From assembly GCA_045596005.1 (NCBI GenBank), contig JAZOBQ010000016.1, forward strand, positions 1,783 to 65,782: a DNA stretch of 64,000 bases, in the 5' to 3' direction. The stretch is from Oscillospiraceae bacterium. GTDB lineage: Bacteria > Bacillota > Clostridia > Oscillospirales > Oscillospiraceae. Below are positions 8,842 to 36,839 of the stretch, one piece after another. Both the position numbers and the translations under genes were made by a program. Each line of letters begins with the position of its first letter. The first letter of the stretch is position 1. The notes under the pieces are model-generated. The model was given only the letters and a program-made list of their open reading frames with translations. It did not search any database and was not told the DNA's origin.

Positions 8842-10053
8842 TTAGTTATTGCCTGTCGGGGCGTGGTCGTTTCCGACTATCCGGCGGTAGTTTTCCTTGT
8901 CTGTGTCCCCCTCGGTCGAGAAGCAAAGTATGCGCGATTTGCTGCTTAGTCCGAGGGCGTTTTTTATATCCTCAAGCTCCGGATCGCTCAGAACCTCAGC
9001 AACAAAACCCAGTGTTGCGGCTCCGCTTTCGCCGGAGACTATTTTCACGTCGCCGGGGCAAGGCTTTGCCAGAATGCGCATGCCGTTGGCGGAAACGGAG
9101 TCCGGAATGCTGACAAAATGGTCGGCGTGATCTCTAAGTATCTCCCACGCGATAGGGCAGGGTTCTCCGCAGCAGAGACCTGCCATGATGGAGTCCATGT
9201 GACCTGTGACGGCGTGAAGAAGTCCGTCGTTTGCCTGAGCGGTTTTGAAGAAGCAGTCTGCGGCGTTCGGCTCCACGATCGTGATTATGGGCCTTTCTTC
9301 ATCGCCGTAGAGCGCGGCAAAAAAAGCGCAGACGGCCGCCGCCATGGAGCCGACTCCGGCCTGCAGAAATACATGGCTGGGTTTTGCGCCGCCGAGCTGC
9401 TCTACCGCTTCCGCCGCCATGGTGGTGTAACCCTCCATTATCCAGGAGGGTATTTCCTCATAGCCATCCCATGAGGTGTCCTGAACGAGTACCCAGCCGT
9501 TTTGGCTCTCTTTTTCTTTGGCCAGTCTTACGGCATCGTCATAGTTCAGCTCGGTTATGGAGGCGTCTGCGCCCAACGCCTGAATGTTCCTCAGACGTTC
9601 GGGAGCGCTGCCTTTTGGCATGTATACAACGCTTTTCTGACCTAGTCGGTTTGCAGTCCATGCAACGCCGCGCCCGTGGTTTCCGTCCGTCGCGGTGACG
9701 AAGCACAGCTCGCCGAGCTTTGATTTGGTCGCCGGGCTCATAAGCCTGTCATATGGCAGAGCGGAGAGATTGATGTCCAGTTTTTTCGCTATGTATTTTC
9801 CTATGGCGTAGCTGCCGCCCAGCACCTTGAATGCGTTCAGCCCGAAGCGAAAGCTTTCGTCTTTAACGTATATGGATTCCACGCCAAGACTCTTTGACAG
9901 CCCGCAGAGTTTTACAAGCGGTGTAGCGCAGTATTCGGGAAAACTTTGGTGGAATTCCAGCGCGGCCTTTGCGCAGTCCGGGCCAAAACGGGCGACTGGG
10001 GAGAGAGAGTCTTCTGGGCGTCGCTTGAGATGAACGGCTTTTATTCCTTCCAT
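8842..10053 (-). CDS. dpaL: diaminopropionate ammonia-lyase-like PLP enzyme
   Basis: ORF 8842..10080 trimmed to ATG 10053 (AAGGAG 7 nt upstream; MEGIKAV...). Contains the 'LNAFKVLGG' PLP-lysine motif and 'TATDGNHGRGVAW', which I associate with DpaL/YgeX. Confidence 0.7.
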   Translation of the reverse strand: MEGIKAVHLKRRPEDSLSPVARFGPDCAKAALEFHQSFPEYCATPLVKLCGLSKSLGVESIYVKDESFRFGLNAFKVLGGSYAIGKYIAKKLDINLSALPYDRLMSPATKSKLGELCFVTATDGNHGRGVAWTANRLGQKSVVYMPKGSAPERLRNIQALGADASITELNYDDAVRLAKEKESQNGWVLVQDTSWDGYEEIPSWIMEGYTTMAAEAVEQLGGAKPSHVFLQAGVGSMAAAVCAFFAALYGDEERPIITIVEPNAADCFFKTAQANDGLLHAVTGHMDSIMAGLCCGEPCPIAWEILRDHADHFVSIPDSVSANGMRILAKPCPGDVKIVSGESGAATLGFVAEVLSDPELEDIKNALGLSSKSRILCFSTEGDTDKENYRRIVGNDHAPTGNN

Positions 10054-10076
10054 GGATATTCTCCTTGACATGGGGA

Positions 10077-11363
10077 TCAAACATCCACCTTGTCGATCAT
10101 GATGTTCAGGATCTCTTCGTCGGTCTCTTTCATGCCCACACGGCCTATATATCCCATTGAGCGGATGGTCGTTTCAAGGTCGTCTTTGATGAAGCCTTCG
10201 CCGGAACGGAAAACGCGCTCGTGGCTGCCCATATAGTGGCTGACGATCGCGGCGTGGACGCCGGAAGCGATCTTGGCTGCGCAGGAGGCTTTGGCACCGT
10301 CGCAGACTATTCCGCCGACGTTGCCGAGGGTGTTGATAAGAGTGTAGCCTATTTCTTCGTAGCCTCCGCCGAAAAGATAGCTTATACCGGCGCCGGCGGC
10401 ACTCGCGGCGCTTACGGCACCGCAGAAAGCGGAGAGCGAGCCTATGTATTTCTTGAGATGGATGGCAATGAGATTTGACAGCACGAGTGCGCGATACAGC
10501 TTTTCCTCACTGACTTTGAGGTCCTTTGCGTATTCAATGACCGGCAAAGAGACAGTCATGCCCTGGTTGCCGGAGCCGGAGTTGATGATGACCGGCAGAG
10601 CACAGCCGCCCATGCGCGCGTCGGAACCGGCGGCCGCCATGGCACAGGCGCGAGTACGCACATTGTCGCCGAAAACCTGCAGCAGGGTGTAGCCAACAGC
10701 GGCTCCGTAAGTGCCTTTGATGCCCTCCGCGGCAATGGCGGAGTTCATCTCGATCTGGCGTGAGATGATGGAACGCACGTCCTCAATATCCACCTCGTTT
10801 GCAAAATCGAGAATGCTTCGTACGTTGAGTCCGGAATAGTCCTCCTTGCGCTGCTCGCTCGCGGCGATATCGTTTATGAAGATAACTTCGCCGTCATGTT
10901 CGATGCGCGTAATAAGGGTGTGGCGGTTTACGACGGATACGGAGGCGCTGTGACCTTTTCCGCTGAGCACCGCAACGATGTAGAGATTATCCACATCCCT
11001 CACAAGGGTGGTCGAGCACATCTTTTCCGCAATGAGTGTTTTGCAGCGGGCAACGTCATCTTCCGATACCATACCGAGCACCTCAAGCTCTGTGTCTGCG
11101 TTTCCGCAGAGAGCGCCGAGTATGGCCGCGGCCTCTATACCGACGAGACCGCCGGAATTGGGAACGGTGACTCCCTTTACGTTCTTGATGATATTGCCGG
11201 AGCATTTTATCTCTATGTGCTCAGGCATGAATCCAAGAACGCTGCGGGCCTTTGCCGAGGCATAGGCTATGGCGATGGGCTCGGTGCAGCCGAGGGCAGG
11301 TATAAGCTCGTGCTCAAGTATGCGTATGAAGTTTGCGTAATTTTCTCTTTTCATGATTTTCAC
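10077..11363 (-). CDS. UPF0597 / YhaM-like L-cysteine desulfidase family protein
   Basis: 428 aa. 'ELIPALGCTEPIAIAYA' near the N-terminus and a Gly/Ala-rich C-terminal half are typical of this serine-dehydratase-alpha-like family. Confidence 0.75.
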   Translation of the reverse strand: MKIMKRENYANFIRILEHELIPALGCTEPIAIAYASAKARSVLGFMPEHIEIKCSGNIIKNVKGVTVPNSGGLVGIEAAAILGALCGNADTELEVLGMVSEDDVARCKTLIAEKMCSTTLVRDVDNLYIVAVLSGKGHSASVSVVNRHTLITRIEHDGEVIFINDIAASEQRKEDYSGLNVRSILDFANEVDIEDVRSIISRQIEMNSAIAAEGIKGTYGAAVGYTLLQVFGDNVRTRACAMAAAGSDARMGGCALPVIINSGSGNQGMTVSLPVIEYAKDLKVSEEKLYRALVLSNLIAIHLKKYIGSLSAFCGAVSAASAAGAGISYLFGGGYEEIGYTLINTLGNVGGIVCDGAKASCAAKIASGVHAAIVSHYMGSHERVFRSGEGFIKDDLETTIRSMGYIGRVGMKETDEEILNIMIDKVDV

Positions 11364-15846: not shown

Positions 15847-16845
15847 TTATATCGCACCGGAGAGGGGGCAAGCATCGCTGCCGAAGCGGAAATGACCATC
15901 CGATGAATCGTTCAGCGCCGGACAGGGGCGGCAGTAATTGCAAAGCCTGCAATCTGCACAGGGATTATCTTTTGCCTGATCTTCGGCCTGCCTGAGCTGA
16001 CGCAGAATTTCCGAGCGTGTCCAGTATTCTTCTGCGCTTGACCATTTCTCAGGATAGTTCAAGTGGCGGCAGGGTGTGAACTGACCGTCCACATCTATGC
16101 AATAGCTGCACAATGCGGCTGTGCAGCCTTTGTAAAGACCGCGGTTAGTATTTCCCCAGAGCTTATTGTCGCAGCTGAGAGCCAGCAGTGAGGAAAAACA
16201 ATGCTGGATTATCAGCTCCACATTTCCGTGGCTGCGTTTCGCAAGACCTGCGACATATTTCATTTGTTCAAGTGTCGGATAGGTATCCAGTTTACCTTCG
16301 GATGTGGGTTTGGGGTCGATGATAATTATGCCGCCGACCTCATATTTTTGAGCCAGAGCGATCATATCGGGAAGCTTCGCCACAGAGTTTCTGTGCATGA
16401 CCCAGTTTATCATTGTGTTTGGAAACTGCTTTTTCTGTAAAAGCTCCAAAGCATCGATCGCATATTGATATCCGTCGCGTGTTTCTGCGTTGTCCGTTTC
16501 GGTAGGACCGTTGAGCGAGACGCAGATCATATCGATGCCGGCACTTACGAGTTTGTCGAGAGCCTCTTCGTCAAAGTGCCAGCCGGAAATGGCAATGCTG
16601 GGCGCGATGCCAAGGCGGCGCGCCGCGGCAACGACCTCGTAAAGATGCGGATAGCACATGGTTTCTCCTCCGCTGAGTTCCACATGCTCCACGCCGAGAC
16701 GGGCAGCTTCTTCCAGCGCTTTTATCGCTGCCTCCGCGGGAATGTCCTTTCCGCCCTCCAGAGTGCAGTAACATTGTGGGCAGCGGAGGGGGCAGCGCGT
16801 GGTAAGTTCGATGTTTATTCCGTTTGGGATATACTCAATGCTCAT
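15847..16845 (-). CDS. radical SAM / SPASM-domain peptide-modifying enzyme
   Basis: 332 aa. CPLRCPQC (CxxxCxxC) at residues 18-25, 'ELSGGE' SAM motif and a C-terminal Cys-rich SPASM-like region ('CTAALCSYCIDVDGQFTPC', 'CADCRLCNYCRPCP'). GAGGTG RBS 8 nt upstream. Immediately downstream of two precursor genes. No N-terminal extension that could hold an RRE. Confidence 0.9.
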   Translation of the reverse strand: MSIEYIPNGINIELTTRCPLRCPQCYCTLEGGKDIPAEAAIKALEEAARLGVEHVELSGGETMCYPHLYEVVAAARRLGIAPSIAISGWHFDEEALDKLVSAGIDMICVSLNGPTETDNAETRDGYQYAIDALELLQKKQFPNTMINWVMHRNSVAKLPDMIALAQKYEVGGIIIIDPKPTSEGKLDTYPTLEQMKYVAGLAKRSHGNVELIIQHCFSSLLALSCDNKLWGNTNRGLYKGCTAALCSYCIDVDGQFTPCRHLNYPEKWSSAEEYWTRSEILRQLRQAEDQAKDNPCADCRLCNYCRPCPALNDSSDGHFRFGSDACPLSGAI

Positions 16846-16907: not shown

Positions 16908-17225
16908 TTAGCGGCTCTTATACCACTTGTAGATGGCGAGACCGGCACCGCCGATAGCGATGGCTGCCTTTGCCACTGCCCATGCGGTAGCGGTGACGGC
17001 AACGCCGCCGCTTACGTCCTCGAGCGCGTTCTCGTCAAGCTCGTCGCCGGGATTAGTGAGCTGATCGAGTGCACGGCCGATTTCGAGTACTTCTTCCAGA
17101 GTGAACTCAACGCCGTTTTCGGCAAAGAGACTGCGAACGGCCTCGGGATTTTCCTGAGCGAGCATTTTTTCAACAAAAGCCTTGTCTTCCATGAGCTTGG
17201 ACAAAACTGCATTTTCAATAGCCAT
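16908..17225 (-). CDS. precursor peptide P1: Nif11-like leader, double-glycine site, 31-aa Cys-free hydrophobic/cationic core
   Basis: 105 aa. The leader '..EDKAFVEKMLAQENPEAVRSLFAENGVEFTLEEV..DELDENALEDVSGG' has Nif11-type shape, with hydrophobics at -4/-7/-12 from GG. Core: VAVTATAWAVAKAAIAIGGAGLAIYKWYKSR. GGAGG RBS upstream. Confidence 0.85.
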   Translation of the reverse strand: MAIENAVLSKLMEDKAFVEKMLAQENPEAVRSLFAENGVEFTLEEVLEIGRALDQLTNPGDELDENALEDVSGGVAVTATAWAVAKAAIAIGGAGLAIYKWYKSR

Positions 17226-17260: not shown

Positions 17261-17581
17261 TTACCAGATGGTCTTTTTGCCGGCGGCTTTTCTGGCCTTG
17301 TTGACCTCTGCCATCGTGTTGGCGAACAGGGCAACACCGGAAGCGACGATAGCGATCTCTGCCAGCAGACCGCCGGAAACGCCTTCGAGTGCGGCTTCGG
17401 AAAGCTCGTCTTCGTTTCCGCCGATAACCATTTCGGCGATCTGGTTGATCTGCTCAAGTGTGAAGTCCACACCCTTATCGGCGAATGAGCTCTGCACGTC
17501 TTCGGGATCTTCCATAGCTGCGATGGCGGCAACGAAATCCTTGTCGCCCATCAGGTCTTTTATCTTGTTGATGTTTTCCAT
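17261..17581 (-). CDS. precursor peptide P2: Nif11-like leader, double-glycine site, 35-aa Cys-free core
   Basis: ORF 17261..17833 trimmed to ATG 17581 (AAGGA 8 nt upstream), giving 106 aa. Leader 'MENINKIKDLMGDKDFVAAIAAMEDPEDVQSSFADKGVDFTLEQI..DELSEAALEGVSGG'. Core LLAEIAIVASGVALFANTMAEVNKARKAAGKKTIW. Confidence 0.85.
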   Translation of the reverse strand: MENINKIKDLMGDKDFVAAIAAMEDPEDVQSSFADKGVDFTLEQINQIAEMVIGGNEDELSEAALEGVSGGLLAEIAIVASGVALFANTMAEVNKARKAAGKKTIW

Positions 17582-17586
17582 ATCAT

Positions 17587-17745
17587 TTATCCTTTCTTTT
17601 TGTTTATTATCAATGCCAGTACAAGGCCGGCCACGAGTCCCAGTATGGTGAAGATGAACGAGGTCCCGGCAAGATAGTCTATAACAATGCCGACCACGCC
17701 GCCGATCAGTATGTCGGAGATGAAGCTTAAAGTTTTGATTTTCAT
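17587..17745 (-). CDS. 52-aa two-TM small membrane protein (AtpZ/AtpI-like pattern); candidate immunity or accessory protein
   Basis: Below the ORF-track size cutoff; translated by hand. AAAGGAGG lies 6 nt upstream of ATG 17745. Product: MKIKTLSFISDILIGGVVGIVIDYLAGTSFIFTILGLVAGLVLALIINKKKG, with stop TAA at 17587-17589. It ends 5 nt before the P2 start. Confidence 0.6.
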   Translation of the reverse strand: MKIKTLSFISDILIGGVVGIVIDYLAGTSFIFTILGLVAGLVLALIINKKKG

Positions 17746-17843: not shown

Positions 17844-18548
17844 TTATTTTGCAATGATACAGACGGCGGTATTGTTGTCCTGCTTCGGGTCAGCGGCGGC
17901 GAGGACTATTCGGCGCATCGAATCGAGCCATTCGCCCGCTGTGGAGGTCTCGGCAAGAGTGCGGAGCATGTCGTCCTCCGTTACCGGCTCCCAGAAACCG
18001 TCCGAGCAAAGCAGGAATCTGTCGCCGGGGAGTACGGACAGCTCGGTGCTGTCTATCTTCGGTTTTTCGCCGACTTCACCCAACACGCGGAAAACTTTGT
18101 TTCTGTCCTTGTGATGGCGGAGCGCATCGGGGGGCAGCTCACCAAGCCTTACGGCCATTTGTACAAGGCTGTGGTCGACGGACTGAAATATTATCTCACC
18201 GCCGCGAAACTGGTAGATCCTGCTGTCGCCGACATGGGCAGCTACAGCCGAGCCCTCTTTTAACCACAGCGCCGCAAGGGTCGTGTGGGCAAAGGCAGTC
18301 TTGGCACAGATGACATCGCTCGCGTTCAGTATGGCGTAGAGAAGCTCATCCTCATCGAAATCCTTGCCGTCAACAAAATCTGTGATTTCATCGACGGCGA
18401 GCTGCGAGGCGATCTCGCCACCGGCGTGTCCGCCGAGACCGTCGGCCACTATGGCGAGCAGGGCAGAGCCTGACGCGCTCACTCCGAGGGAGTCTTCGTT
18501 GTTGCCGCGTTTTCCAATATCGGTATATACGGAGTACTGATAATCCAT
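17844..18548 (-). CDS. PP2C-family Ser/Thr phosphatase
   Basis: ORF 17844..18560 (alternative GTG start) trimmed to ATG 18548 (MDYQYSVYTDIGKRGNNEDS). Contains 'AIVADGLGGHAGGEIAS' and 'LLCSDG' PP2C motifs. Confidence 0.85.
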   Translation of the reverse strand: MDYQYSVYTDIGKRGNNEDSLGVSASGSALLAIVADGLGGHAGGEIASQLAVDEITDFVDGKDFDEDELLYAILNASDVICAKTAFAHTTLAALWLKEGSAVAAHVGDSRIYQFRGGEIIFQSVDHSLVQMAVRLGELPPDALRHHKDRNKVFRVLGEVGEKPKIDSTELSVLPGDRFLLCSDGFWEPVTEDDMLRTLAETSTAGEWLDSMRRIVLAAADPKQDNNTAVCIIAK

Positions 18549-18585
18549 GGACGAGATCACATCCTTGCGTTTGAAATCATCATTA

Positions 18586-18637: not shown

Positions 18638-20005
18638 TCAGGAGGGGTCTTTTATCTCATAATCGTTTATCCAGGCGACGCAGCCGGGAAGATTCTTGCC
18701 CCAGCCTTCTTCCTTCTTGACTGTGCTCCAATTGCCGGCAGAGCCGTTATAGTAGAGCGTTCTCAGCTCACTTGTGCCGTAGAAAAATTCGGAGCCTACG
18801 GTTTTTAGAGTACGGGGAAGGGAGAGCTTCGTCATGGATTCGCAGTTATAGAAAGCGCGGGTGCCGATGTTCTCGAGGCCTTCAGGCAGGATCATTTCAA
18901 GAAGGTTTTTACAGCCGTAAAAACCTTGCTCTCCAATAGAAAGCACCTGAGCGCCGAGTTTTACAGCTTCGAGGCTTTCGCAGTCCTTGAAGCTCGCAAA
19001 GCCAACGGATGAGCCGCACTCAAGGGTCTTAAGCTCGCTGCAGCCGTTGAAAAGGAGATCGCCCATGGTTTCAACATTAGAGCCTATCCTTGCCGTTACT
19101 ATTCCGGTGCAGCCGGAGAACGCGCGGCTGCCGATCACGGTGACGCTTTCGGGAAGCGTGACTTCCTTAAGTTTTGCGCAGTCTGCGAAGGCATAGTCGC
19201 CGATGGTTTTGAGGTTTTCGGAAAAGCTTACATTCTGCAGCTCGCTGCAGCCGCTGAAGGCGTGGCTTTCGAGATGCTCAACGCTGTCTTCGAGAACGAG
19301 GCTGACGAGCTTTGTATTGTTGCTCAGCGCGGCTGCGCTGACATTGCAGGCCACGCGAAGACTGGTAAGACCGGTGCAGGCATCGAAAACGCAGTTGCCG
19401 AGCTGCTGAATGCTGCTACCGAGAATGGCGTTTTTAAGCTCGCTGCAGCCGGAGAATACATAAGAGCCGACGGTCTTGATATTGCCGCCGAGGTTGACGT
19501 CAGTAAGCTTGACGCAGCCGGAAAAAGCATAGTCTGCGATCTCCTCAAGTCCGCTGCCGAAATCGATCTGGGTGAGCTCACTGCAGTTTGCAAAGGCGTA
19601 GTACTCAATTTTGCGTACACTGTCGCCGATGATGATCTTCTGCACCTTGTCAGCTTTGGCGAATACTTTTTCACCGATGAGACTGACTCCGTCGCCGATC
19701 TCGATGATGGTAATGCTGTCGACAAAGTCTTTGAATGCCGTGGTATCGGTAATGCTCTGGGTGATATCCGCACCGCTGAGCAGGAGTCTGCCGTCCTCGT
19801 ATAAGGAGAACAAAACGCCGCTGCCAAGCATTTCCTCATAAATTACGATGGGTTCGTTTCGGCTATAGTTTCCGTCGGACTGAGTGCTCTGGCTGGGCTG
19901 GGTCTCCAGTGCGGGAAGGCTTTCGGGGTCGGGACCTGAGCTGCCGCAGCCGACCATGAGCAGGGCGAGGGAAAGAGAGAGTCCCAGAATGATTCTTTTC
20001 ATCAT
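18638..20005 (-). CDS. lipoprotein with BspA-type leucine-rich repeats
   Basis: 455 aa. Lipobox 'LLMVGC'. About 12 tandem ~23-aa repeats of the form 'I.IGD.AF..C..L..V.LP.S' (e.g. VTLPESVTVIGSRAFSGCTGI). Confidence 0.85.
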   Translation of the reverse strand: MMKRIILGLSLSLALLMVGCGSSGPDPESLPALETQPSQSTQSDGNYSRNEPIVIYEEMLGSGVLFSLYEDGRLLLSGADITQSITDTTAFKDFVDSITIIEIGDGVSLIGEKVFAKADKVQKIIIGDSVRKIEYYAFANCSELTQIDFGSGLEEIADYAFSGCVKLTDVNLGGNIKTVGSYVFSGCSELKNAILGSSIQQLGNCVFDACTGLTSLRVACNVSAAALSNNTKLVSLVLEDSVEHLESHAFSGCSELQNVSFSENLKTIGDYAFADCAKLKEVTLPESVTVIGSRAFSGCTGIVTARIGSNVETMGDLLFNGCSELKTLECGSSVGFASFKDCESLEAVKLGAQVLSIGEQGFYGCKNLLEMILPEGLENIGTRAFYNCESMTKLSLPRTLKTVGSEFFYGTSELRTLYYNGSAGNWSTVKKEEGWGKNLPGCVAWINDYEIKDPS

Positions 20006-20014
20006 AATATCTCC

Positions 20015-21370
20015 TCAGATGGTGATATGCACAAATGTAAGGGTGGTGGAGCCGAGACGGATCTGATCTCCGCATTTGAGCTGAGCGGAAGTGCCGCGAG
20101 CGAGCTTGCTGCCATTCAGATAGCTGCCGTTGCCGCCCTCCGGACTTTCGTCGACGAGGTGGAAAGCGTCCCCACTGCGCCTTACAAGGGCGTGTGCGGC
20201 GCGGTGTATCTTTACGTCTGCCAGAGTGCCGTCGGGCCATTTGCTGTTTCGGTTCAAGGGCAAAGTCTCGCTTTCCAACAGCTTGACGGCACCACTGCTT
20301 CCGTTCATGAGCAAAGCCGCGAAGCCATTATCGAGTATTTTGCGTGCCTGCGCGCCGGTTACAAGAATGAGCGCTTCATCGTTGAGACGGAAAAGGGCAG
20401 GCGTTTCAAGCTGTATATGCTTGCCGGACTCAATCGCTTCACCCTTGATGAAAGTGCCGTTTGACGAACCGGAGTCTTTCAGGAAATATTTCTGATTATA
20501 CTGCAATATTTCCGCGTGGAGCTTGCTGATGGACTTGTTGCCCTCGATGACAATGTCGCACTTGATGGGAGAGCGGCCGATTATTGTCTGCGGCTTTTTC
20601 AGTATGTATGCCTTTTCTGCTGCCGGATGGAGCAAAACGGCTGGGATCTGGTTTACAACGCGGACGGTCGCGTCTGCGTCGGACTCATAACCGTCACAGA
20701 CGGTCATGTCGCCGGGATCGCACTCAAAAACTGTGTGGTTGTCGGCTTCATCGCCAAGATCCGCGTAAGAGTTGTTTTCCGGTTCCGGTTCGGGCTTGGA
20801 GAGATCCTTGAGCACGAAGTTTTTGATATCAAATGCCGGAGTTCGCTCCTTTTTCTGAACGGGAGCAGGCTCGTTTTTCGGCGGCTGCTCTTTTTGGGGC
20901 ACGGCATCCGGCTTGAGGCGCAGCGAGCCGGCCGGTGCTTTGCAGGCAGTAAATTCAGCGGTCTCGCAGAGCTTGGCGATGAGAGCGGCGTCGCCGGGAT
21001 AGTCGCTGCAGCGAAGATAATGAAGGTGGCTCAGCTGCATGCGCAGACCCTTGGGCAGCTCCGCATTGTCGATCAGAACGGGAATGACCTTCTTATTGCA
21101 TTTAAGTGCGTAGACTATCTCGCTTTTGCAGTTGTGGGAGAGACTGGAATCAGCGGAGATGAAAGCGACGACGACTTTGGCGTCTTCGAGATGACTTTCA
21201 ATGTTGTCCAGCCAGTCGTCGCCGGCGTGGTTTCCGTCATCATACCAGATGCGGTAGCCGCCTAGAACGACCTGCTCGAAAAAAGGATAGAGCTTTGCCT
21301 TGTCCTTGTGGCAATAACTCATGAAGATATAAGGTTCTTTTCCCTCATAGGGGATGGCGCGACAAATCAT
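20015..21370 (-). CDS. TIR domain protein with two C-terminal FHA domains
   Basis: 451 aa. The N-terminus 'YIFMSYCHKDKAKLYPFFEQVVLGGYRIWYDD..GDDWLDNIESHLEDAKVVVAFISADSSLSHNCKSEIVYAL' has the TIR_2 pattern, including the conserved Glu after 'C.SE'. FHA1 is 'IIGRS..CDIVI.GNKSISKLHAEI......FLKDSGSSNGTFI'. FHA2 is degenerate ('HLVDESPEGGNGSYLNGSKL'). The RBS overlaps the STAS stop. Confidence 0.85.
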   Translation of the reverse strand: MICRAIPYEGKEPYIFMSYCHKDKAKLYPFFEQVVLGGYRIWYDDGNHAGDDWLDNIESHLEDAKVVVAFISADSSLSHNCKSEIVYALKCNKKVIPVLIDNAELPKGLRMQLSHLHYLRCSDYPGDAALIAKLCETAEFTACKAPAGSLRLKPDAVPQKEQPPKNEPAPVQKKERTPAFDIKNFVLKDLSKPEPEPENNSYADLGDEADNHTVFECDPGDMTVCDGYESDADATVRVVNQIPAVLLHPAAEKAYILKKPQTIIGRSPIKCDIVIEGNKSISKLHAEILQYNQKYFLKDSGSSNGTFIKGEAIESGKHIQLETPALFRLNDEALILVTGAQARKILDNGFAALLMNGSSGAVKLLESETLPLNRNSKWPDGTLADVKIHRAAHALVRRSGDAFHLVDESPEGGNGSYLNGSKLARGTSAQLKCGDQIRLGSTTLTFVHITI

Positions 21371-24731: not shown

Positions 24732-26906
24732 TTAAATATTCTGTACGAAGGTTCTGTAAATGCCTTCTTCCTGCATCAGTGATTTGTGGGTGCCGCGCTG
24801 GACTATCTTGCCGTTTCTCATGACAACGATCTGGTTGCAGTCGCGGAATGCGCTCAGACGGTGGGCGACGATGATGCAGGTGATGCCGCGGCGTCTTATG
24901 TTGCTGAGCACCTGTTTTTCGACTACGGGGTCGAGCGCGGAAGTGGCCTCGTCCATAACGAGAATACTGGGGTTTGTGGCAAGGGCGCGTGCGATCTCAA
25001 GGCGCTGACGCTGACCTCCGGAAAGATTCATGGCGTTTTCGTTAAGCACATAATCGTAAGCGCCGGGACAGCTTATGATGAAATCGTGGATGCAGGCGTC
25101 CTTGGCGGCGAGGATCATATCCTCCTCCAGAATGGCTGAATTCCACATCGTGAGATTATCGCGGATGCTGCCGGAGAAGAGTGTGATATTCTGGCTCACT
25201 GTGGCCACGCTGGCATTGAGGCAGCTTTTGGATATCGTTTCGATGGGTGCGCCGTCGAGAAGGATCTGACCGCCCCAGGGATGATAAAGACCGCTCACCA
25301 GCTTCGAAACCGTGGACTTGCCGCAGCCGGATGGACCGACAAAGGCGATGCTCTCGCCGCTGTAAAGATGGAAACTGAACCCTTCGACAAGTGCGGGTTT
25401 GAGCGCGCTGTATCCAAAGGAAACGTCGCGCAGTTCGATCTCGCCGCTGAGTTTTTTCTGTGCGGAGCGGACGGAGCTCTGCTCATAGCGAGCGTCTTCG
25501 GGGTATTTCTGAACGTCCTCCACACGCGTGATGCTGGCTTTCATGGTCTGGATCTTCTGAGCAAAGGTGACGAGTTTGTTAACGGGCTCGATGAATGAGT
25601 CGAAGAGGGAGCAGAATGCGGTGAGACCACCGAGACTCAGACTTCCGGTGATGACAAGGATACCGCCGACGAGCAGATGCAATATGTCGGTGATGTTGCC
25701 CGCGGTTTCGGGGACTGCGTTCAGAACACGCTGGAAAGCGCTCTGCTTTTGCTCAAGGTTGGAGTGCTTGACCTGATAGCCGAGTACGCGGGAGACATAT
25801 TCATTTTCGGCGCCGGAGGCTTTGAGCGTGTCGGTGATGCTAAGTCCGGCACAGACCGCGCCGTAAAGCTTGCCGCCGCTCATCTGCTGCTTGATGGAAG
25901 ATTCGGAAATGAATCTGCGGCTGAGTACAACAACGGCTATGCAGACCGCAACGTTGAGAAGACCGATGAGCGTCATCAAAGGGCTGTAAAACAGCAAAAC
26001 TATGAGATAAAAAGCCGCAACGATTATGTTCAGAACTGTTTCCGCAAGGTCACCTGCGAGAAACGCGCTGACTTCGGTGTTGCTGTTCATTCGGCTGACG
26101 AGATCGCCGGCATAGCGCTGGTCGAAAAAGCTCATGGGAAGATGCAGCATATGGGTCAGAAACTTCACTCCGGAGGTGAGTGTAAGCTTGCTGCGGAGTT
26201 TCTGGAGAATGAGGTCTCTGTAATAATGCAGACCCAGCTTGAGCGCAGCCAGCAGTCCCATGAACACGAGAATTTTCGTGAGCCAGTCCGTGTAACCGGC
26301 CGCAAGAATGTCATCGATGAACATCTGCGACAATACGGGCAGGACGAGGCCGGGGAACACCATGAGAAGTCCTATGTAGAAAAGTTTGAACAAAACGCCG
26401 TACTGTCCGCTCAGCCTCTGGCGGAGCATATCCCATGCGGTGTTTTGCTTTTTTTCTTTTTCAAAAGCATCTGTAAGCATAAATGTGAGCACAACGCCGG
26501 TGAAACCCTCGTCGAACTCCTCCCATGTCAGCCTGCGGCGGCCCACAGCGGGGTCGTTGAGATAGACGTATTCTTTTTTGTTTTTGCCGCTGCCTTTGGA
26601 CTTGAAACCTTCGAGCACAACAAAGTGGCAGAAGTTCCAGTGGACGATGCAGGGCATGTCAAATTCGCGGAGAGCTTCCGGCTCTTTGCGGAAACCTCTG
26701 CATTCAAGACCATATTTCTTGGCGGCTCGCATGATATTGCCGGCGTTGCAGCCGTCACGAGAAACGCCGGTTTCTATTCGCATCTGTTCCAGAGGGAGAA
26801 ATTTGCCGAAATAGGAGAATATCATCGACAGCGATGCAGCCCCGCATTCGGTAGCTTCCATCTGAAAGACGCTGGGTGTCTTTCTGTAATTGGCCATATC
26901 AGTCAC
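24732..26906 (-). CDS. peptidase-containing ABC transporter (C39 double-glycine peptidase + exporter), NHLM type
   Basis: 724 aa. The N-terminus 'PSVFQMEATECGAASLSMIFSYFG' carries the catalytic Cys of the C39 domain. Walker A 'GPSGCGKST' and signature 'LSGGQRQR'. Confidence 0.9.
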   Translation of the reverse strand: MTDMANYRKTPSVFQMEATECGAASLSMIFSYFGKFLPLEQMRIETGVSRDGCNAGNIMRAAKKYGLECRGFRKEPEALREFDMPCIVHWNFCHFVVLEGFKSKGSGKNKKEYVYLNDPAVGRRRLTWEEFDEGFTGVVLTFMLTDAFEKEKKQNTAWDMLRQRLSGQYGVLFKLFYIGLLMVFPGLVLPVLSQMFIDDILAAGYTDWLTKILVFMGLLAALKLGLHYYRDLILQKLRSKLTLTSGVKFLTHMLHLPMSFFDQRYAGDLVSRMNSNTEVSAFLAGDLAETVLNIIVAAFYLIVLLFYSPLMTLIGLLNVAVCIAVVVLSRRFISESSIKQQMSGGKLYGAVCAGLSITDTLKASGAENEYVSRVLGYQVKHSNLEQKQSAFQRVLNAVPETAGNITDILHLLVGGILVITGSLSLGGLTAFCSLFDSFIEPVNKLVTFAQKIQTMKASITRVEDVQKYPEDARYEQSSVRSAQKKLSGEIELRDVSFGYSALKPALVEGFSFHLYSGESIAFVGPSGCGKSTVSKLVSGLYHPWGGQILLDGAPIETISKSCLNASVATVSQNITLFSGSIRDNLTMWNSAILEEDMILAAKDACIHDFIISCPGAYDYVLNENAMNLSGGQRQRLEIARALATNPSILVMDEATSALDPVVEKQVLSNIRRRGITCIIVAHRLSAFRDCNQIVVMRNGKIVQRGTHKSLMQEEGIYRTFVQNI

Positions 26907-27735
26907 CCCAGATATCGCTGAGCTTGGAGAAAAGTTTGGTGATGGGGGCGACCTCGTCGGTCACTATTCTGGCGGTGACGAGACTGCCGTTTTGTACATT
27001 GACGGTGGAACCCTTGTCGTTGGACCAGTAGTAGCCGCTGAGGGTATTGGCGTCGGGGTAAAGCTCACATGCGACGGCTACAACTGCACCGTCGCGCACG
27101 AATATGGATTCAAGGTTGTTGCCGCTGCCTATGACGCTGGCCATGGCTTCGCTGGGGGTCGCATAGGCGTCGATATTGATGACACGGGCGACCATATTGC
27201 CGTAGGAACTGCTGTCGAGGGAGTCAAGCGTGACATTTACCTGCATGCCGCGCTCGAGTTTTTTCGCGTTGGCAAGAGGAACGTAGCAGACGATCATCTG
27301 CGAAGCCTGGGAGGTGGGGGATACGCGGATTATATCCTTTCCAGGAGTGAACTTGTCGTCATTTTGGACTGCGATCTCGGAAACGACACCGACCTGGTCT
27401 GAATATACGACAACGACTTCGTTGGAGGAATTGCGGTAGGTCATGACAGGGTCGCCGAGATGCACTTCGTCTCCGGCGCGGACGCGCACGGATACGACGG
27501 TACCAGCATCCTGAGTATAGACGGAGTTGGATCCGACTACAGAACTGACAAGGCCCTTCGCGGTGACCGTCTCGGGGATAGTTCCGACAAAGGACCAGAT
27601 AAGGCTTATTACAATAATAAAAGTAATGCCGATAAGAGCGAGCCAGGACATTGGTGAGGTGATTTTGAGCACCTTGTCGAGCTGCTCGGGATTGGACATT
27701 CTTTCGAGAGATGATTTTCTGTAGAGATCAGCCAT
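26899..27735 (-). CDS. HlyD-family secretion adaptor (NHLM bacteriocin system type)
   Basis: 278 aa. One N-terminal TM segment ('WLALIGITFIIVISLIWSFVG') followed by a beta-rich barrel-sandwich region. It overlaps both neighbouring genes by 8 nt. Confidence 0.8.
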   Translation of the reverse strand: MADLYRKSSLERMSNPEQLDKVLKITSPMSWLALIGITFIIVISLIWSFVGTIPETVTAKGLVSSVVGSNSVYTQDAGTVVSVRVRAGDEVHLGDPVMTYRNSSNEVVVVYSDQVGVVSEIAVQNDDKFTPGKDIIRVSPTSQASQMIVCYVPLANAKKLERGMQVNVTLDSLDSSSYGNMVARVINIDAYATPSEAMASVIGSGNNLESIFVRDGAVVAVACELYPDANTLSGYYWSNDKGSTVNVQNGSLVTARIVTDEVAPITKLFSKLSDIWGD

Positions 27736-28270
27736 GGTTTATGTACTCCTTCCAGTAGGCGTCGTTGAAAGAGGCGAGCTTGTCCAGCGCGCGGGACAGC
27801 AGAACGCGGGCGTTTCCGGGACTGATGCCGAGCTTCTTGGCGATTTCGTCACTGGAGCGATTCTCAAAATAGCGCATCATGACGATCTGCTGCTGGCGTT
27901 CGGGCAGCTGCTTAATGGCCATCATAAGGGCGCTGTGAAGCTGTTCAAGATAAATGCCCTCGTCCATATCTATGCTCTGGTCGCGCATGGTATCGGAGAC
28001 CGACTCAAAATCAACATAGGAGACATGGTCGCGGTAATAGTTCTTGAGGCGGCTGTTGACGATGAGATAAAGCCATGTCGTCAAAGAGCTTTTTTCGGGG
28101 TCGTAGTCATCATAGTGGCTGTAGCAATATATAAAGACTTCGCTCGTGAGGTCTTCGGCATCAGCATAGTTGGAGATCCTTTTATGAACATAGCCGAGAA
28201 CACGGTCAAAATTGGCGCTGTAAAAATCCTCGTATGCGGGTTTTTCATTTTTCGGCAAAAGTTTCAGCAT
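27728..28270 (-). CDS. ECF-like (two-domain) sigma-70 family RNA polymerase sigma factor
   Basis: ORF 27728..28408 trimmed to ATG 28270 (MLKLLPKNEK). Region 2: 'DAEDLTSEVFIYCYSHYDDYDPEKSSLTTWLYLIVNSRLKNYYRD'. Region 4: 'LPERQQQIVMMRYFENRSSDEIAKKLGISPGNARVLLSRALDKL'. It is the first gene of the minus-strand arm. Confidence 0.85.
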   Translation of the reverse strand: MLKLLPKNEKPAYEDFYSANFDRVLGYVHKRISNYADAEDLTSEVFIYCYSHYDDYDPEKSSLTTWLYLIVNSRLKNYYRDHVSYVDFESVSDTMRDQSIDMDEGIYLEQLHSALMMAIKQLPERQQQIVMMRYFENRSSDEIAKKLGISPGNARVLLSRALDKLASFNDAYWKEYINHG

Positions 28271-28360: not shown

Positions 28361-28555
28361 ATGGCAAGGAACATTGAAAAGCTGCTTCGTCTGGTCGCGG
28401 ATTATCACGAATTCTGCGGCGATGCCGAGGTGAAGCGCGGCGCGAGAGAGCTGGACGAACTCAGCCTTGAAGAACTCGATTTCATCGCTGCTGCCGGCAT
28501 GCTCCCCTTAAAGGAAGACGAAAAAGACGACGAAAACAAAAAGACGGTTTTCTGA
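28361..28555 (+). CDS. 64-aa peptide with double-glycine-type leader signature and a short acidic tail
   Basis: ORF track 28334..28555 uses a TTG start. ATG 28361, with GGAAAGGA about 11 nt upstream, is preferred. Product: MARNIEKLLRLVADYHEFCGDAEVKRGARELDELSLEELDFIAAAGMLPLKEDEKDDENKKTVF. 'DELSLEELDFIAAAG' parallels 'DELSEEDLDDVSGG' of P3. Confidence 0.5.
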   Translation: MARNIEKLLRLVADYHEFCGDAEVKRGARELDELSLEELDFIAAAGMLPLKEDEKDDENKKTVF

Positions 28556-28901: not shown

Positions 28902-30275
28902 ATGCTGGAGATAAACTCCCTTGTCATGGAACACTACAAAATACTGGGTGTGGCCGGAAAGGGCGGAATGGGACGGGTATACCACGCGCTTGACATACGC
29001 GATGGAAGCCATTGGGCGATAAAGGAAGACCTTGATGCTGCCGGAGGCGATTTTCTGCGCGAAGAGGCGGAGCTTCTGGCGCAGCTATCTCATCCTGCTC
29101 TGCCTGTCAGCCGTGGGATTTGCAGCTGGCAGGGAACACAGTACATGACCATGCAGTTTATGTCGGGAGAAACTCTTGCGGGAATGTTGAAAAAGCAGGA
29201 AAAGTATCCGGAAACCCAGGTGCTGGACTGGTTTTTGCAAATATGCGACGTTCTGAAATATCTCCACAGCCGACCGAAACCTGTTGTCTACCGCGATCTC
29301 AAGCCGTCGAATATAATAATCGATGAAGAGAAACGGATAAGGATAATTGACTTCGGAATAGCCGAGGAATATACAAGACAAGACGGCGGGGAACAGATGC
29401 AAAAAGGCGGACTCACAAAAGGTTTCGCTGCGCCGGAGCAGTATAACCGCCGCTTCAAAGCCGATGTGCGTACCGACATCTACGCCCTTGGAGTAACGGT
29501 TCACTATTTGCTGACGGGCAAAAATCCCACAAAACCGCCGTATGAATTTCTCCCGGTCAGAAAGCTTGTGCCGGATGTCTCGCCGGCTATGGAGGAGATA
29601 GTTAAAAAATGCCTTCAGCCAAACCCGGATATGCGCTATGCCGGTGCGGACGAGCTGTATGACGAGCTGAAGAATATCGACAAAACCAACCGTCGGATGC
29701 GCAGAAAAAAAAGCATGCGAATCATAGCCGCGCTTGCAGTTATCGCCATTGTCGCGGCTGCGGTGTTCATTTTGGAGAGCAAGCTTGAAAGCGGCAGACA
29801 AAAGGAGATCGACGAGTATTATTCGCTTGTCGAGGCTTCGGAAGTCGCGGCTTTGAATGAGGATTTTATTCTTGCAGCGGAGAAAGCCGAAAAGGCGATA
29901 GCCATGCAGCCGAATGAGATCAGTGCCTATCTCGCGGCGGCGAACTGCCTCGTGCAGCAGGGAGATTTCGAAGCGTGCCGAAAATACGTGAGTGCGGAAA
30001 TTCTTGACCGTTTTCCCGAATGCTACGAAAACGAGGACTTCCTCGAGCTGATGGCACGGATGTATGACAGAAGCGGAGATGCAGAGAATGCGCTGTATTA
30101 TTATCTGAGCTTGTGTGAGATTAACGGCGCAAGAGCCGATCACTGGCTGGCACTGGCGGACTGCCAGATAAGACTCGGGAAAAACGAAGACGCGAAGACC
30201 AGCTTGAATAATTACCTGAACGCGGGAGGAGACGAGACCGTGTATCGGGAGCTGTCGGCCGGACTCGCCGGATAA
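28902..30275 (+). CDS. Hanks-type Ser/Thr protein kinase, membrane-anchored, extracellular TPR-like domain
   Basis: 457 aa. Contains 'GKGGMGRVY', 'AIKE', 'VVYRDLKPSNIII', 'DFGIAEE' and 'GFAAPEQ'. TM segment 'IIAALAVIAIVAAAVFIL' is followed by a helical repeat region. Confidence 0.9.
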   Translation: MLEINSLVMEHYKILGVAGKGGMGRVYHALDIRDGSHWAIKEDLDAAGGDFLREEAELLAQLSHPALPVSRGICSWQGTQYMTMQFMSGETLAGMLKKQEKYPETQVLDWFLQICDVLKYLHSRPKPVVYRDLKPSNIIIDEEKRIRIIDFGIAEEYTRQDGGEQMQKGGLTKGFAAPEQYNRRFKADVRTDIYALGVTVHYLLTGKNPTKPPYEFLPVRKLVPDVSPAMEEIVKKCLQPNPDMRYAGADELYDELKNIDKTNRRMRRKKSMRIIAALAVIAIVAAAVFILESKLESGRQKEIDEYYSLVEASEVAALNEDFILAAEKAEKAIAMQPNEISAYLAAANCLVQQGDFEACRKYVSAEILDRFPECYENEDFLELMARMYDRSGDAENALYYYLSLCEINGARADHWLALADCQIRLGKNEDAKTSLNNYLNAGGDETVYRELSAGLAG

Positions 30276-33871: not shown

Positions 33872-34444
33872 ATGAGTAAGTTTTTGCGGTTTATCACCAC
33901 TCTTACGGTGGGATTCGGTTTGCTGCTGCTGTATGCATATCTCGTTTATCAAAACAGCGTGGACAAGATGGAGCTGCTGAGACAGCCAAGTTACTATACA
34001 CTTGAAAACTACTGGTACCTGCTTGTCGCGGGATGCGGCTGTGTAGGATTTGCGATAATAAGCTGTTTTTGTGCGTGGAACAAGAAGCTTGATAAGAAGA
34101 TAGTTGTGCTGCCCAATGCTGTCGCGGCGGAAAACGAAGAGCTTCTCGACTGGCTGACGGGCTCGTCTCTCGACACTGCGCGAAACGCAAAACGCAGCGA
34201 GACCTCAGCTGATATTAAGTCGGCAGAGAGCAGCGGGCGAAAGGCGGAGGAAAACTCTCCGATTTCGAAAAAGAGCGCCGCAGTGCACGGCGATACTGAA
34301 CTAAGCTCAATGGATTGCGGCACGGTTTATGAAAACGATGCGGAGGGCACTGTGCTTACTCAGCTCGATGATGGCCTTACCGTGCTTTCGGACGAGGGCG
34401 AGACTGTGTTCGATAAAGACGACACGGTCCTGCGTTCGGAATAA
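33872..34444 (+). CDS. two-TM membrane protein with acidic tail carrying five Thr-Val motifs
   Basis: ORF 33692..34444 trimmed to ATG 33872 (GGAGG 8 nt upstream; one nt after the vWA stop). TM segments are 'FITTLTVGFGLLLLYAYLVY' and 'YLLVAGCGCVGFAIISCFCAW'. Tail: 'GTVYENDAEGTVLTQLDDGLTVLSDEGETVFDKDDTVLRSE'. Confidence 0.7.
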   Translation: MSKFLRFITTLTVGFGLLLLYAYLVYQNSVDKMELLRQPSYYTLENYWYLLVAGCGCVGFAIISCFCAWNKKLDKKIVVLPNAVAAENEELLDWLTGSSLDTARNAKRSETSADIKSAESSGRKAEENSPISKKSAAVHGDTELSSMDCGTVYENDAEGTVLTQLDDGLTVLSDEGETVFDKDDTVLRSE

Positions 34445-36036: not shown

Positions 36037-36795
36037 ATGAAATTCATGATCGAAGCCGCCTGTGCCTGCAGTACGGGCAAGGTGCGAAAAAACAACGAGG
36101 ATAATTTCTTTTTCGACGGAAGGTGCCTTGAGGAGGAAAATTCCGGTCTGAAGCATCCGGTGTATATGGAGCAGATCATCCGGCACGGAAGCTGTTTCGC
36201 CGTTTTCGACGGTATGGGCGGTGAGAATTTCGGAGAGCTGGCGTCCTACACCGCGGCGAGGGAAATGCAAAGCTGCGAGCGCGTTTTGTCCGATTTCTTT
36301 ATCCCGGAGCGCAGATATCTCATCCGTATGACTGAGCAGCTCAACCGCAGCGTGCTTGAAGCGGCGAGAGAAAAATGCACAGACCGAATGGGTACGACCA
36401 TGGCGGCACTTTATTTTAATCCGCGCTATGTTTATTCCTGCAATCTGGGTGATAGCAGAGCCTACCGTCTGCGCGACGGAGAATTCATGCAGTTGTCCCG
36501 TGACCATGCGGACTCGATGTATAACGGCGGACGCAAAGCTCCGCTGACACAGTTTCTCGGAATGGACTCCGAGGAGAGACTGATAGAGCCGTATATCGCA
36601 AAGGGAGAACTCGCGCGGGGAGATATGTACCTTCTGTGCAGCGACGGTCTGAGTGATATGGTGACAAACTTTGAAATATCTGATATTATGATCAAAAGCG
36701 ATGATGTGGAGTCGTGTGCCGCACAGCTTGTGGAAGCAGCGCTTGAGCGCGGCGGAATTGACAACACGACCGTTATTGTGTGCAGAATAGTGTAA
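36037..36795 (+). CDS. PP2C-family Ser/Thr phosphatase
   Basis: 252 aa. Contains 'STGKVRKNNEDNFF', 'AVFDGMGGENFGELAS' and 'LLCSDGLSDMV'. Confidence 0.85.
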   Translation: MKFMIEAACACSTGKVRKNNEDNFFFDGRCLEEENSGLKHPVYMEQIIRHGSCFAVFDGMGGENFGELASYTAAREMQSCERVLSDFFIPERRYLIRMTEQLNRSVLEAAREKCTDRMGTTMAALYFNPRYVYSCNLGDSRAYRLRDGEFMQLSRDHADSMYNGGRKAPLTQFLGMDSEERLIEPYIAKGELARGDMYLLCSDGLSDMVTNFEISDIMIKSDDVESCAAQLVEAALERGGIDNTTVIVCRIV

Positions 36796-36839
36796 AACAC
36801 AGCCAAATTTCATCCATTAATTTGAGAGAGGGTGTTCGC

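Follow-up and report, generated by a model that had tools for sequence, protein, structure and literature searches.

We propose that a TIR-FHA-FHA protein encoded in a bacteriocin cluster of gut Clostridia is an NAD+ hydrolase whose TIR domain is gated by phospho-Thr (pThr) recognition through its FHA domains, and that it forms the output of the Hanks-kinase/PP2C circuit of the cluster, a Nif11/class IIb cluster that would be driven by an ECF sigma factor and in which the gene is fixed. We give this reading a probability of roughly two in five. The product would be a cytoplasmic regulator/effector. The underlying architecture could hardly have arisen by chance, and hundreds of related proteins have it too. 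Literature searches on TIR with FHA, on NHLP with FHA and on TIR/FHA/Thoeris/kinase combinations found no earlier description, in agreement with the original prediction, whose author knew of no account of this architecture and context.

The gene lies in a compact operon of 12 genes, separated by -8 to 98 nt, in the order ECF sigma factor, HlyD, C39-ABC, ABC2, STAS, TIR-FHA, LRR lipoprotein and PP2C, followed by the Nif11/class IIb precursors and a radical SAM enzyme (Table 1). The exporter trio exceeds the NCBIfam cut-offs (TIGR03794, 171.6 bits; TIGR03796, 935.9 bits; TIGR03797, 731.4 bits) and the precursors match TIGR03798 and TIGR03949, their leaders being of the Nif11 type with GG cleavage sites and the core of class IIb; the bacteriocin-export context first proposed for the gene is thus borne out. 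The junction with the STAS gene reads ...GAC TAA GGAGATGAGATAAGT ATG, a gap of 15 nt in which a GGAG ribosome-binding site abuts the STAS stop codon, and that with the LRR lipoprotein gene reads TGA GGAGATATT ATG, a gap of 9 nt; the overlap of ribosome-binding site and STAS stop and the 9-nt gap agree with the original description. A scan for promoters and terminators within the operon gave nothing above chance. The wider island also encodes a VWA-domain protein and lipoproteins.

Table 1. Features of the TIR-FHA-FHA gene and of the surrounding island, with positions in the window (the whole 64-kb stretch of DNA that was analysed).
Feature	Position	Strand	Remarks
TIR-linker-FHA-FHA gene	20015..21370	-	451 aa, ATG start; ORF list and Pfam TIR_2, FHA x2
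TIR domain, aa 1-145	20936..21370	-	Glu84 codon 21119-21121; Ser18, Asp44, Asn80 and Cys81 family-conserved
Disordered acidic/Pro-rich linker, aa 146-243	20642..20935	-	Three [DE]-x-x-T-V motifs at 20660-20746; candidate phospho-sites T213, T223, T235
FHA1, aa 244-338	20357..20641	-	Canonical: R266, S282, H285, N304
FHA2, aa 349-451	20018..20326	-	Divergent: N373-R374, H389 in place of Ser, H393, N414
Radical SAM peptide-maturase-like enzyme	15847..16845	-	Orthologue in related locus L082
Nif11-leader precursor B	16908..17225	-	Core matches class IIb lactobin A/cerein 7B bacteriocin
Nif11-leader precursor A	17261..17581	-	...EGVSGG, then hydrophobic core
52-aa two-TM ORF, possible immunity peptide	17587..17745	-	ORF
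PP2C Ser/Thr phosphatase	17844..18560	-	Profile match
BspA-type LRR lipoprotein	18638..20005	-	Signal peptide ...LLMVGC
STAS protein, 121 aa	21386..21751	-	Partner upstream of TIR-FHA; canonical phospho-Ser not conserved
NHLP export ABC2 permease/ATPase, 983 aa	21763..24714	-	TIGR03797; duplicated ~300-aa N-terminal module
C39-peptidase ABC exporter	24732..26906	-	TIGR03796
HlyD-type secretion adaptor	26899..27735	-	TIGR03794
ECF sigma factor	27728..28270	-	Likely start M at 28270; long ORF reaches 28408
Small peptide gene	28361..28555	+	Leader ...ELSLEELDFIAAAG, then 18-aa charged core; divergent from sigma gene
Peptide core MLPLKEDEKDDENKKTVF			Named beside the two-peptide bacteriocin among the cluster peptides
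Hanks Ser/Thr kinase-TM-TPR	28902..30275	+	Profile match
Two-TM protein	33872..34444	+	Five [DE]-x-T-V motifs in a 40-aa stretch of the tail
Second PP2C phosphatase	36037..36795	+	Profile match
Second Hanks kinase	36780..38969	+	NADase-type glycan-binding (F5/8C-like) ectodomain

The arrangement is shared by a large family of gut and rumen Clostridia, which at 50% identity forms at least 150 clusters. One carrier is the cultured Schaedlerella arabinosiphila (DSM 106076, NZ_RHJS01000002, ~6.10 Mb), whose orthologue occupies 9995-11200 of locus L019. The order ECF sigma, HlyD, C39-ABC, ABC2, STAS, TIR-FHA is conserved, usually with an LRR lipoprotein and a PP2C or kinase gene following, and it persists at identities as low as 25-27%, the carriers including Oscillospiraceae, Lachnospiraceae and Ruminococcus, among others; translational embedding and export context are conserved across the family. 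STAS adjoins TIR-FHA wherever upstream sequence is available and STAS is recognisable, a constant pairing that the original prediction did not remark on. The sigma and exporter genes lie upstream in most loci, and most of the loci with enough flanking sequence have PP2C and/or a kinase close by.

This setting bears on the suggestion that the protein serves anti-phage abortive infection, in which infection, sensed by a kinase, would lead the TIR domain to deplete NAD+ and so kill the cell, the position in a bacteriocin operon being incidental. TIR NADases are common defence effectors, PADLOC gave weak matches to ThsB and TIR-pAgo models (20-22 bits), and the kinases resemble those of MADS6 and PglW, far under cut-off. 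However, the PADLOC matches are at the level of the TIR domain, with no defence system recognised and no ThsA-like partner; the flanks of the island are metabolic (tannase, GH3, MFS and esterase genes), those of a related locus (L081) are housekeeping genes, and the sigma/exporter/STAS synteny is retained at the low identities given above, unlike that of shuffled defence islands. Phage defence was accordingly rejected as the primary reading, and we regard it as very improbable.

The profile search and structure prediction by which the original prediction was to be checked were both run. Pfam TIR_2 (PF13676) matches aa 15-134 with 67.9 bits (cut-off 28, E 1.5e-18), and FHA (PF00498) matches two stretches with 79.7 bits against 20.7 (E 2.1e-22). 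The AF2 model of the whole 451-aa protein has a pLDDT of 82.6; in Foldseek searches with it the FHA matches dominate, and hence a TIR-only model was used (pLDDT 91, pTM 0.87), which has the flavodoxin-like TIR fold. A Foldseek search of a viral structure library with the full-length model found nothing further. Profile matches, models and structural neighbours thus agree on a TIR domain, a linker and two FHA domains. The best PDB neighbours of the TIR-only model are NAD-cleaving TIRs, namely SPARTA TIR-APAZ (TM 0.72-0.74), AbTir (7uxu, 0.70/0.77), SARM1 and Cat1; the TIRs of MyD88 and the TLRs are good structural matches as well.

The stretch SHNCKSEIVYAL begins at aa 78, so that the conserved Glu is E84. 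Profile alignment to PDB entries pairs this residue with E208 of AbTir (the Glu of 'DWTNYE') and with the Glu of WCWDE in Cat1, as had been expected of a catalytic Glu, and also pairs S18 with S140 and D44 with D167 of AbTir. In AbTir, NADase activity is abolished by mutation of S140, D167 and E208 (PMC11374754). Amongst 98 family members, E84 is present in 93, D44 in 97 and N80, at position -4 of the WxxxE motif, in 87; S18 shows little or no variation in alignments A1 and A2. A Glu was likewise found in 109 of the 111 further representatives with a matchable motif, whilst ~13% of the further representatives failed the catalytic motif pattern. The sequence evidence makes it probable that the TIR domain is NAD-cleaving. 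The active site is nevertheless atypical, since the Trp of the WxxxE motif (W204 in AbTir) is Asn80 and the residue equivalent to AbTir R151 is Tyr28. According to PMC11374754, which cites Manik et al., TIRs that produce cADPR strongly conserve the WxxxE Trp, whereas it is less conserved in those that are non-catalytic or make no cADPR; AbTir needs it for cADPR formation. The replacement argues against a cyclic product and makes hydrolysis likelier than cADPR cyclisation.

Alternatively, the protein might be a non-enzymatic adaptor, its FHA domains docking phosphorylated partners and its TIR domain providing a surface for homotypic or heterotypic interaction, so as to regulate, together with STAS, the exporter or the ECF sigma factor. 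It might also be linked to the TIR-TM-LRR receptors that are common in the same bacteria, and would resemble MyD88-type adaptors or the Fha1 and Rv1747 secretion regulators. The loss of the Trp would fit this, given that the same paper describes it as less conserved in non-catalytic TIRs, as would the structural likeness to MyD88 and TLR TIRs. The same clostridial TIR subfamily also swaps modules, being joined to FHA, to kinase, or to TM-LRR or other ectodomains in receptor-like fusions. Five of the 98 members lack Glu84, and one of them (P0060) retains an identical operon, so that catalysis is not universally required. Moreover, the order of STAS followed by a partner recalls partner-switching modules, with no anti-sigma factor visible in the operon. 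Set against this are the near-invariance of Glu84, Ser18 and Asp44, and the covariation of Asn80 with Glu84, a pattern that a functional active site would give: all five Glu-less members also lack N80 (Fisher p=6.8e-6; 98 members). The top structural neighbours are enzymes, and the island showed no second TIR gene. An adaptor function is a possibility that we take seriously, although we think it somewhat unlikely.

Partner switching in its classical form (SpoIIAA/RsbV type) was rejected as an explanation of the STAS gene. The residue equivalent to Ser58 is P, A, S, F, N or Y amongst STAS orthologues, which means that the phospho-Ser is not conserved, and a Pfam/profile search of the operon found no HATPase_c gene and so no GHKL anti-sigma kinase. 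A STAS protein of this kind may be regulated by a ligand or by a partner, and this is one of the points that could be cited for a TIR domain acting as a signal generator, the ADPR-derived molecule being read by, for example, STAS or the N-terminal modules of ABC2 and gating peptide export or sigma activity. The TIR domain is of the catalytic type in alignment and structural neighbours, and the ABC2 module is conserved and duplicated, with a beta-roll-like pattern. However, when this module was considered as a cNMP or nucleotide sensor, hhalign placed the expected beta-roll segment on CRP residues 37-75 with a probability of only 1%. Nor does the module match any nucleotide-binding family significantly: it had no Pfam match at E<=10 and none amongst PDB sequences, and a search for proteins homologous to ABC2 aa 1-300 returned nothing. 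SLOG, SAVED, Macro and STING receptor domains are absent from the island in profile searches. Together with the replacement of the Trp, which tells against cADPR-type products, this weakens the cyclic signal generator of the original prediction, and we consider signal generation distinctly improbable.

The FHA domains differ in their motifs, and the first description of one as canonical and the other as degenerate holds. FHA1 has the full pThr-binding set (G265-R266, S282-K-L-H285, N304-G-T306), with R266 conserved in 100/100, H285 in 99/100 and N304 in 98/100 sequences; its beta-sandwich fold matches MDC1, EmbR, OdhI and GarA (Foldseek E 6e-9), and GarA/OdhI are nearest in sequence. FHA2 (N373-R374, H389-R-A-A-H393, N414-G-S416, with a 1-aa insertion) is degenerate because the Gly is Asn373 and the pThr-contacting Ser is His389. 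Its remaining residues are no less constant (R374 in 99/100; R390, H393 and N414 each in 98/100). Ser occupies the contacting position of FHA2 in one third of the family, and 96 of 98 proteins retain this Ser in at least one FHA domain. In the AF2 model a single short helix connects the two domains. From these residues the FHA domains are predicted to be pThr readers.

The acidic, Pro-rich linker, originally put at ~110 residues, comprises 111 (aa 135-245; 13 Pro, 22 Asp/Glu, 12 Lys/Arg), and AlphaFold pLDDT is below 50 at aa 171-237. Across the family its length varies from 44 to 326 aa and its sequence is hypervariable. Even so, the linkers contain 277 [DE]x(1,2)T[VI] motifs, of the acidic D-D-x-x-T-V type, against 39.8+-6.4 in shuffles, an enrichment of 7-fold. 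In the window, the only cluster of such motifs outside the TIR-FHA linker is in the two-TM protein. Control of the TIR-FHA protein by the island kinases and phosphatases becomes more plausible in the light of the sequence comparisons, because the linker motif is conserved and because a kinase and/or PP2C accompanies the gene in most of the loci that are long enough. The final conserved TV motif lies ~9 aa ahead of FHA1, which would make binding in cis awkward. A search for proteins with motif arrays in related loci gave no conserved trans partner, the matches being limited to 'DGTV' repeats of a structural kind and to one small FHA protein resembling GarA. The small FHA protein occurs in Schaedlerella, where it has N-terminal E-E-T-V motifs and adjoins the sigma gene.

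For the pThr-gated hydrolase, the following scheme may be envisaged. The membrane Hanks kinases, with their extracellular TPR or glycan-binding ectodomains and the LRR lipoproteins encoded alongside, would sense a cue from outside the cell, which might be envelope stress or the exported peptides themselves. They would phosphorylate the acidic D-D-x-x-T-V sites of the disordered linker in the TIR-FHA protein itself and, in the window, the tail of the two-TM protein too. The tandem FHA domains would then read pThr, and this would either drive head-to-tail or membrane clustering or release a closed state; clustering would produce the oligomer that TIR enzymes require and so switch on NAD+ cleavage, and the PP2C phosphatases would reset the switch. 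Adjacency suggests that the small STAS protein encoded just upstream could be a stoichiometric binding partner, inhibitor or adaptor, although not a classical phospho-STAS. The outcome, coupled to the production or sensing of bacteriocin, might be growth arrest or a gating of metabolism; the NAD-depleting suicide or self-immunity checkpoint first put forward is speculation.

Amongst characterised bacterial TIR enzymes, most are activated by phage-sensing partners, as in Thoeris, CBASS, pAgo and type III CRISPR systems, and to our knowledge no role has been assigned to many of the other TIR proteins of bacteria. The present family points to control of a TIR enzyme by kinase signalling in a setting other than phage defence. 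It would add a control logic running from Hanks kinase through pThr and FHA to TIR, and a new setting for TIR, the bacteriocin/RiPP production and export cluster of abundant gut Clostridia. A still wider reading is of a bacterial 'Toll-like' pathway assembled from other components, in which extracellular LRR, TPR or glycan sensors and Hanks kinases would write pThr marks, the tandem FHA would assemble and activate the TIR NAD+ hydrolase, and production and sensing of a peptide (bacteriocin or pheromone) would be coupled to the NAD+ metabolism or survival of the producer; this we hold to be unlikely. If that reading is correct, this would be the first TIR enzyme gated by Ser/Thr phospho-signalling and the first TIR effector for inter-bacterial competition instead of phage defence.

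With AbTir/TcpC-type NADases, SARM1 and the SPARTA TIRs, the protein has in common the fold (TM 0.6-0.77) and an aligned catalytic Glu, beta-A Ser and beta-B Asp. The activity of these TIRs depends on TIR self-association, and we know of no characterised TIR enzyme with a tandem-FHA regulatory module. It differs from AbTir-type NADases at Asn80 and Tyr28 and in being encoded in a bacteriocin operon instead of a virulence or defence setting. Thoeris ThsB shares the TIR domain, with a borderline match (Pfam ThsB_TIR, 21.8 bits against 21.2), but the ThsA effector (SIR2 or TM with SLOG/Macro) is absent from the island, the operon differs and the Trp to Asn replacement makes a cADPR-type signal less likely. 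The exporter trio, GG-leader precursors and class IIb core recall NHLP/Nif11 and ComAB/BlpAB-type double-glycine export systems, whereas the descriptions of these that are known to us or were found include neither an embedded STAS-TIR-FHA pair nor control by Hanks kinase, PP2C and ECF sigma.

A looser analogy is with the Thr-phosphorylation pathway of the T6SS (PpkA, PppA, Fha1/TagH), in which a secretion machine is under the post-translational control of an FHA protein together with a Hanks kinase and a PP2C; the VWA-domain protein and lipoproteins of the island add to the likeness. However, the match to TagH/Fha1 (TIGR03354) reaches 60.6 bits where the cut-off is 120.25, T6SS genes are absent, and the family differs further in its NHLP-type ABC exporter and in having a TIR domain. 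GarA and OdhI combine an FHA domain with an N-terminal ETTS phospho-switch that acts by auto-inhibition in cis, and human TIFA oligomerises head-to-tail through pThr9 and its FHA domain. By analogy with all three, the family would have a pThr motif and an FHA domain in one polypeptide, and its FHA1 is closest in sequence to GarA/OdhI; but where those proteins inhibit enzymes or recruit TRAF6, the output here would be a TIR domain. Finally, Rv1747, an ABC exporter of M. tuberculosis described in PMC8339232, has two FHA domains and, between them, a disordered linker with Thr sites phosphorylated by a Hanks kinase (PknF); in both cases the FHA pair is functionally tied to an ABC exporter, which for the present family is predicted from the operon. 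Here, in contrast, the Thr motifs precede FHA1, and the FHA pair belongs to a separate protein encoded two genes downstream of ABC2, with a TIR domain attached.

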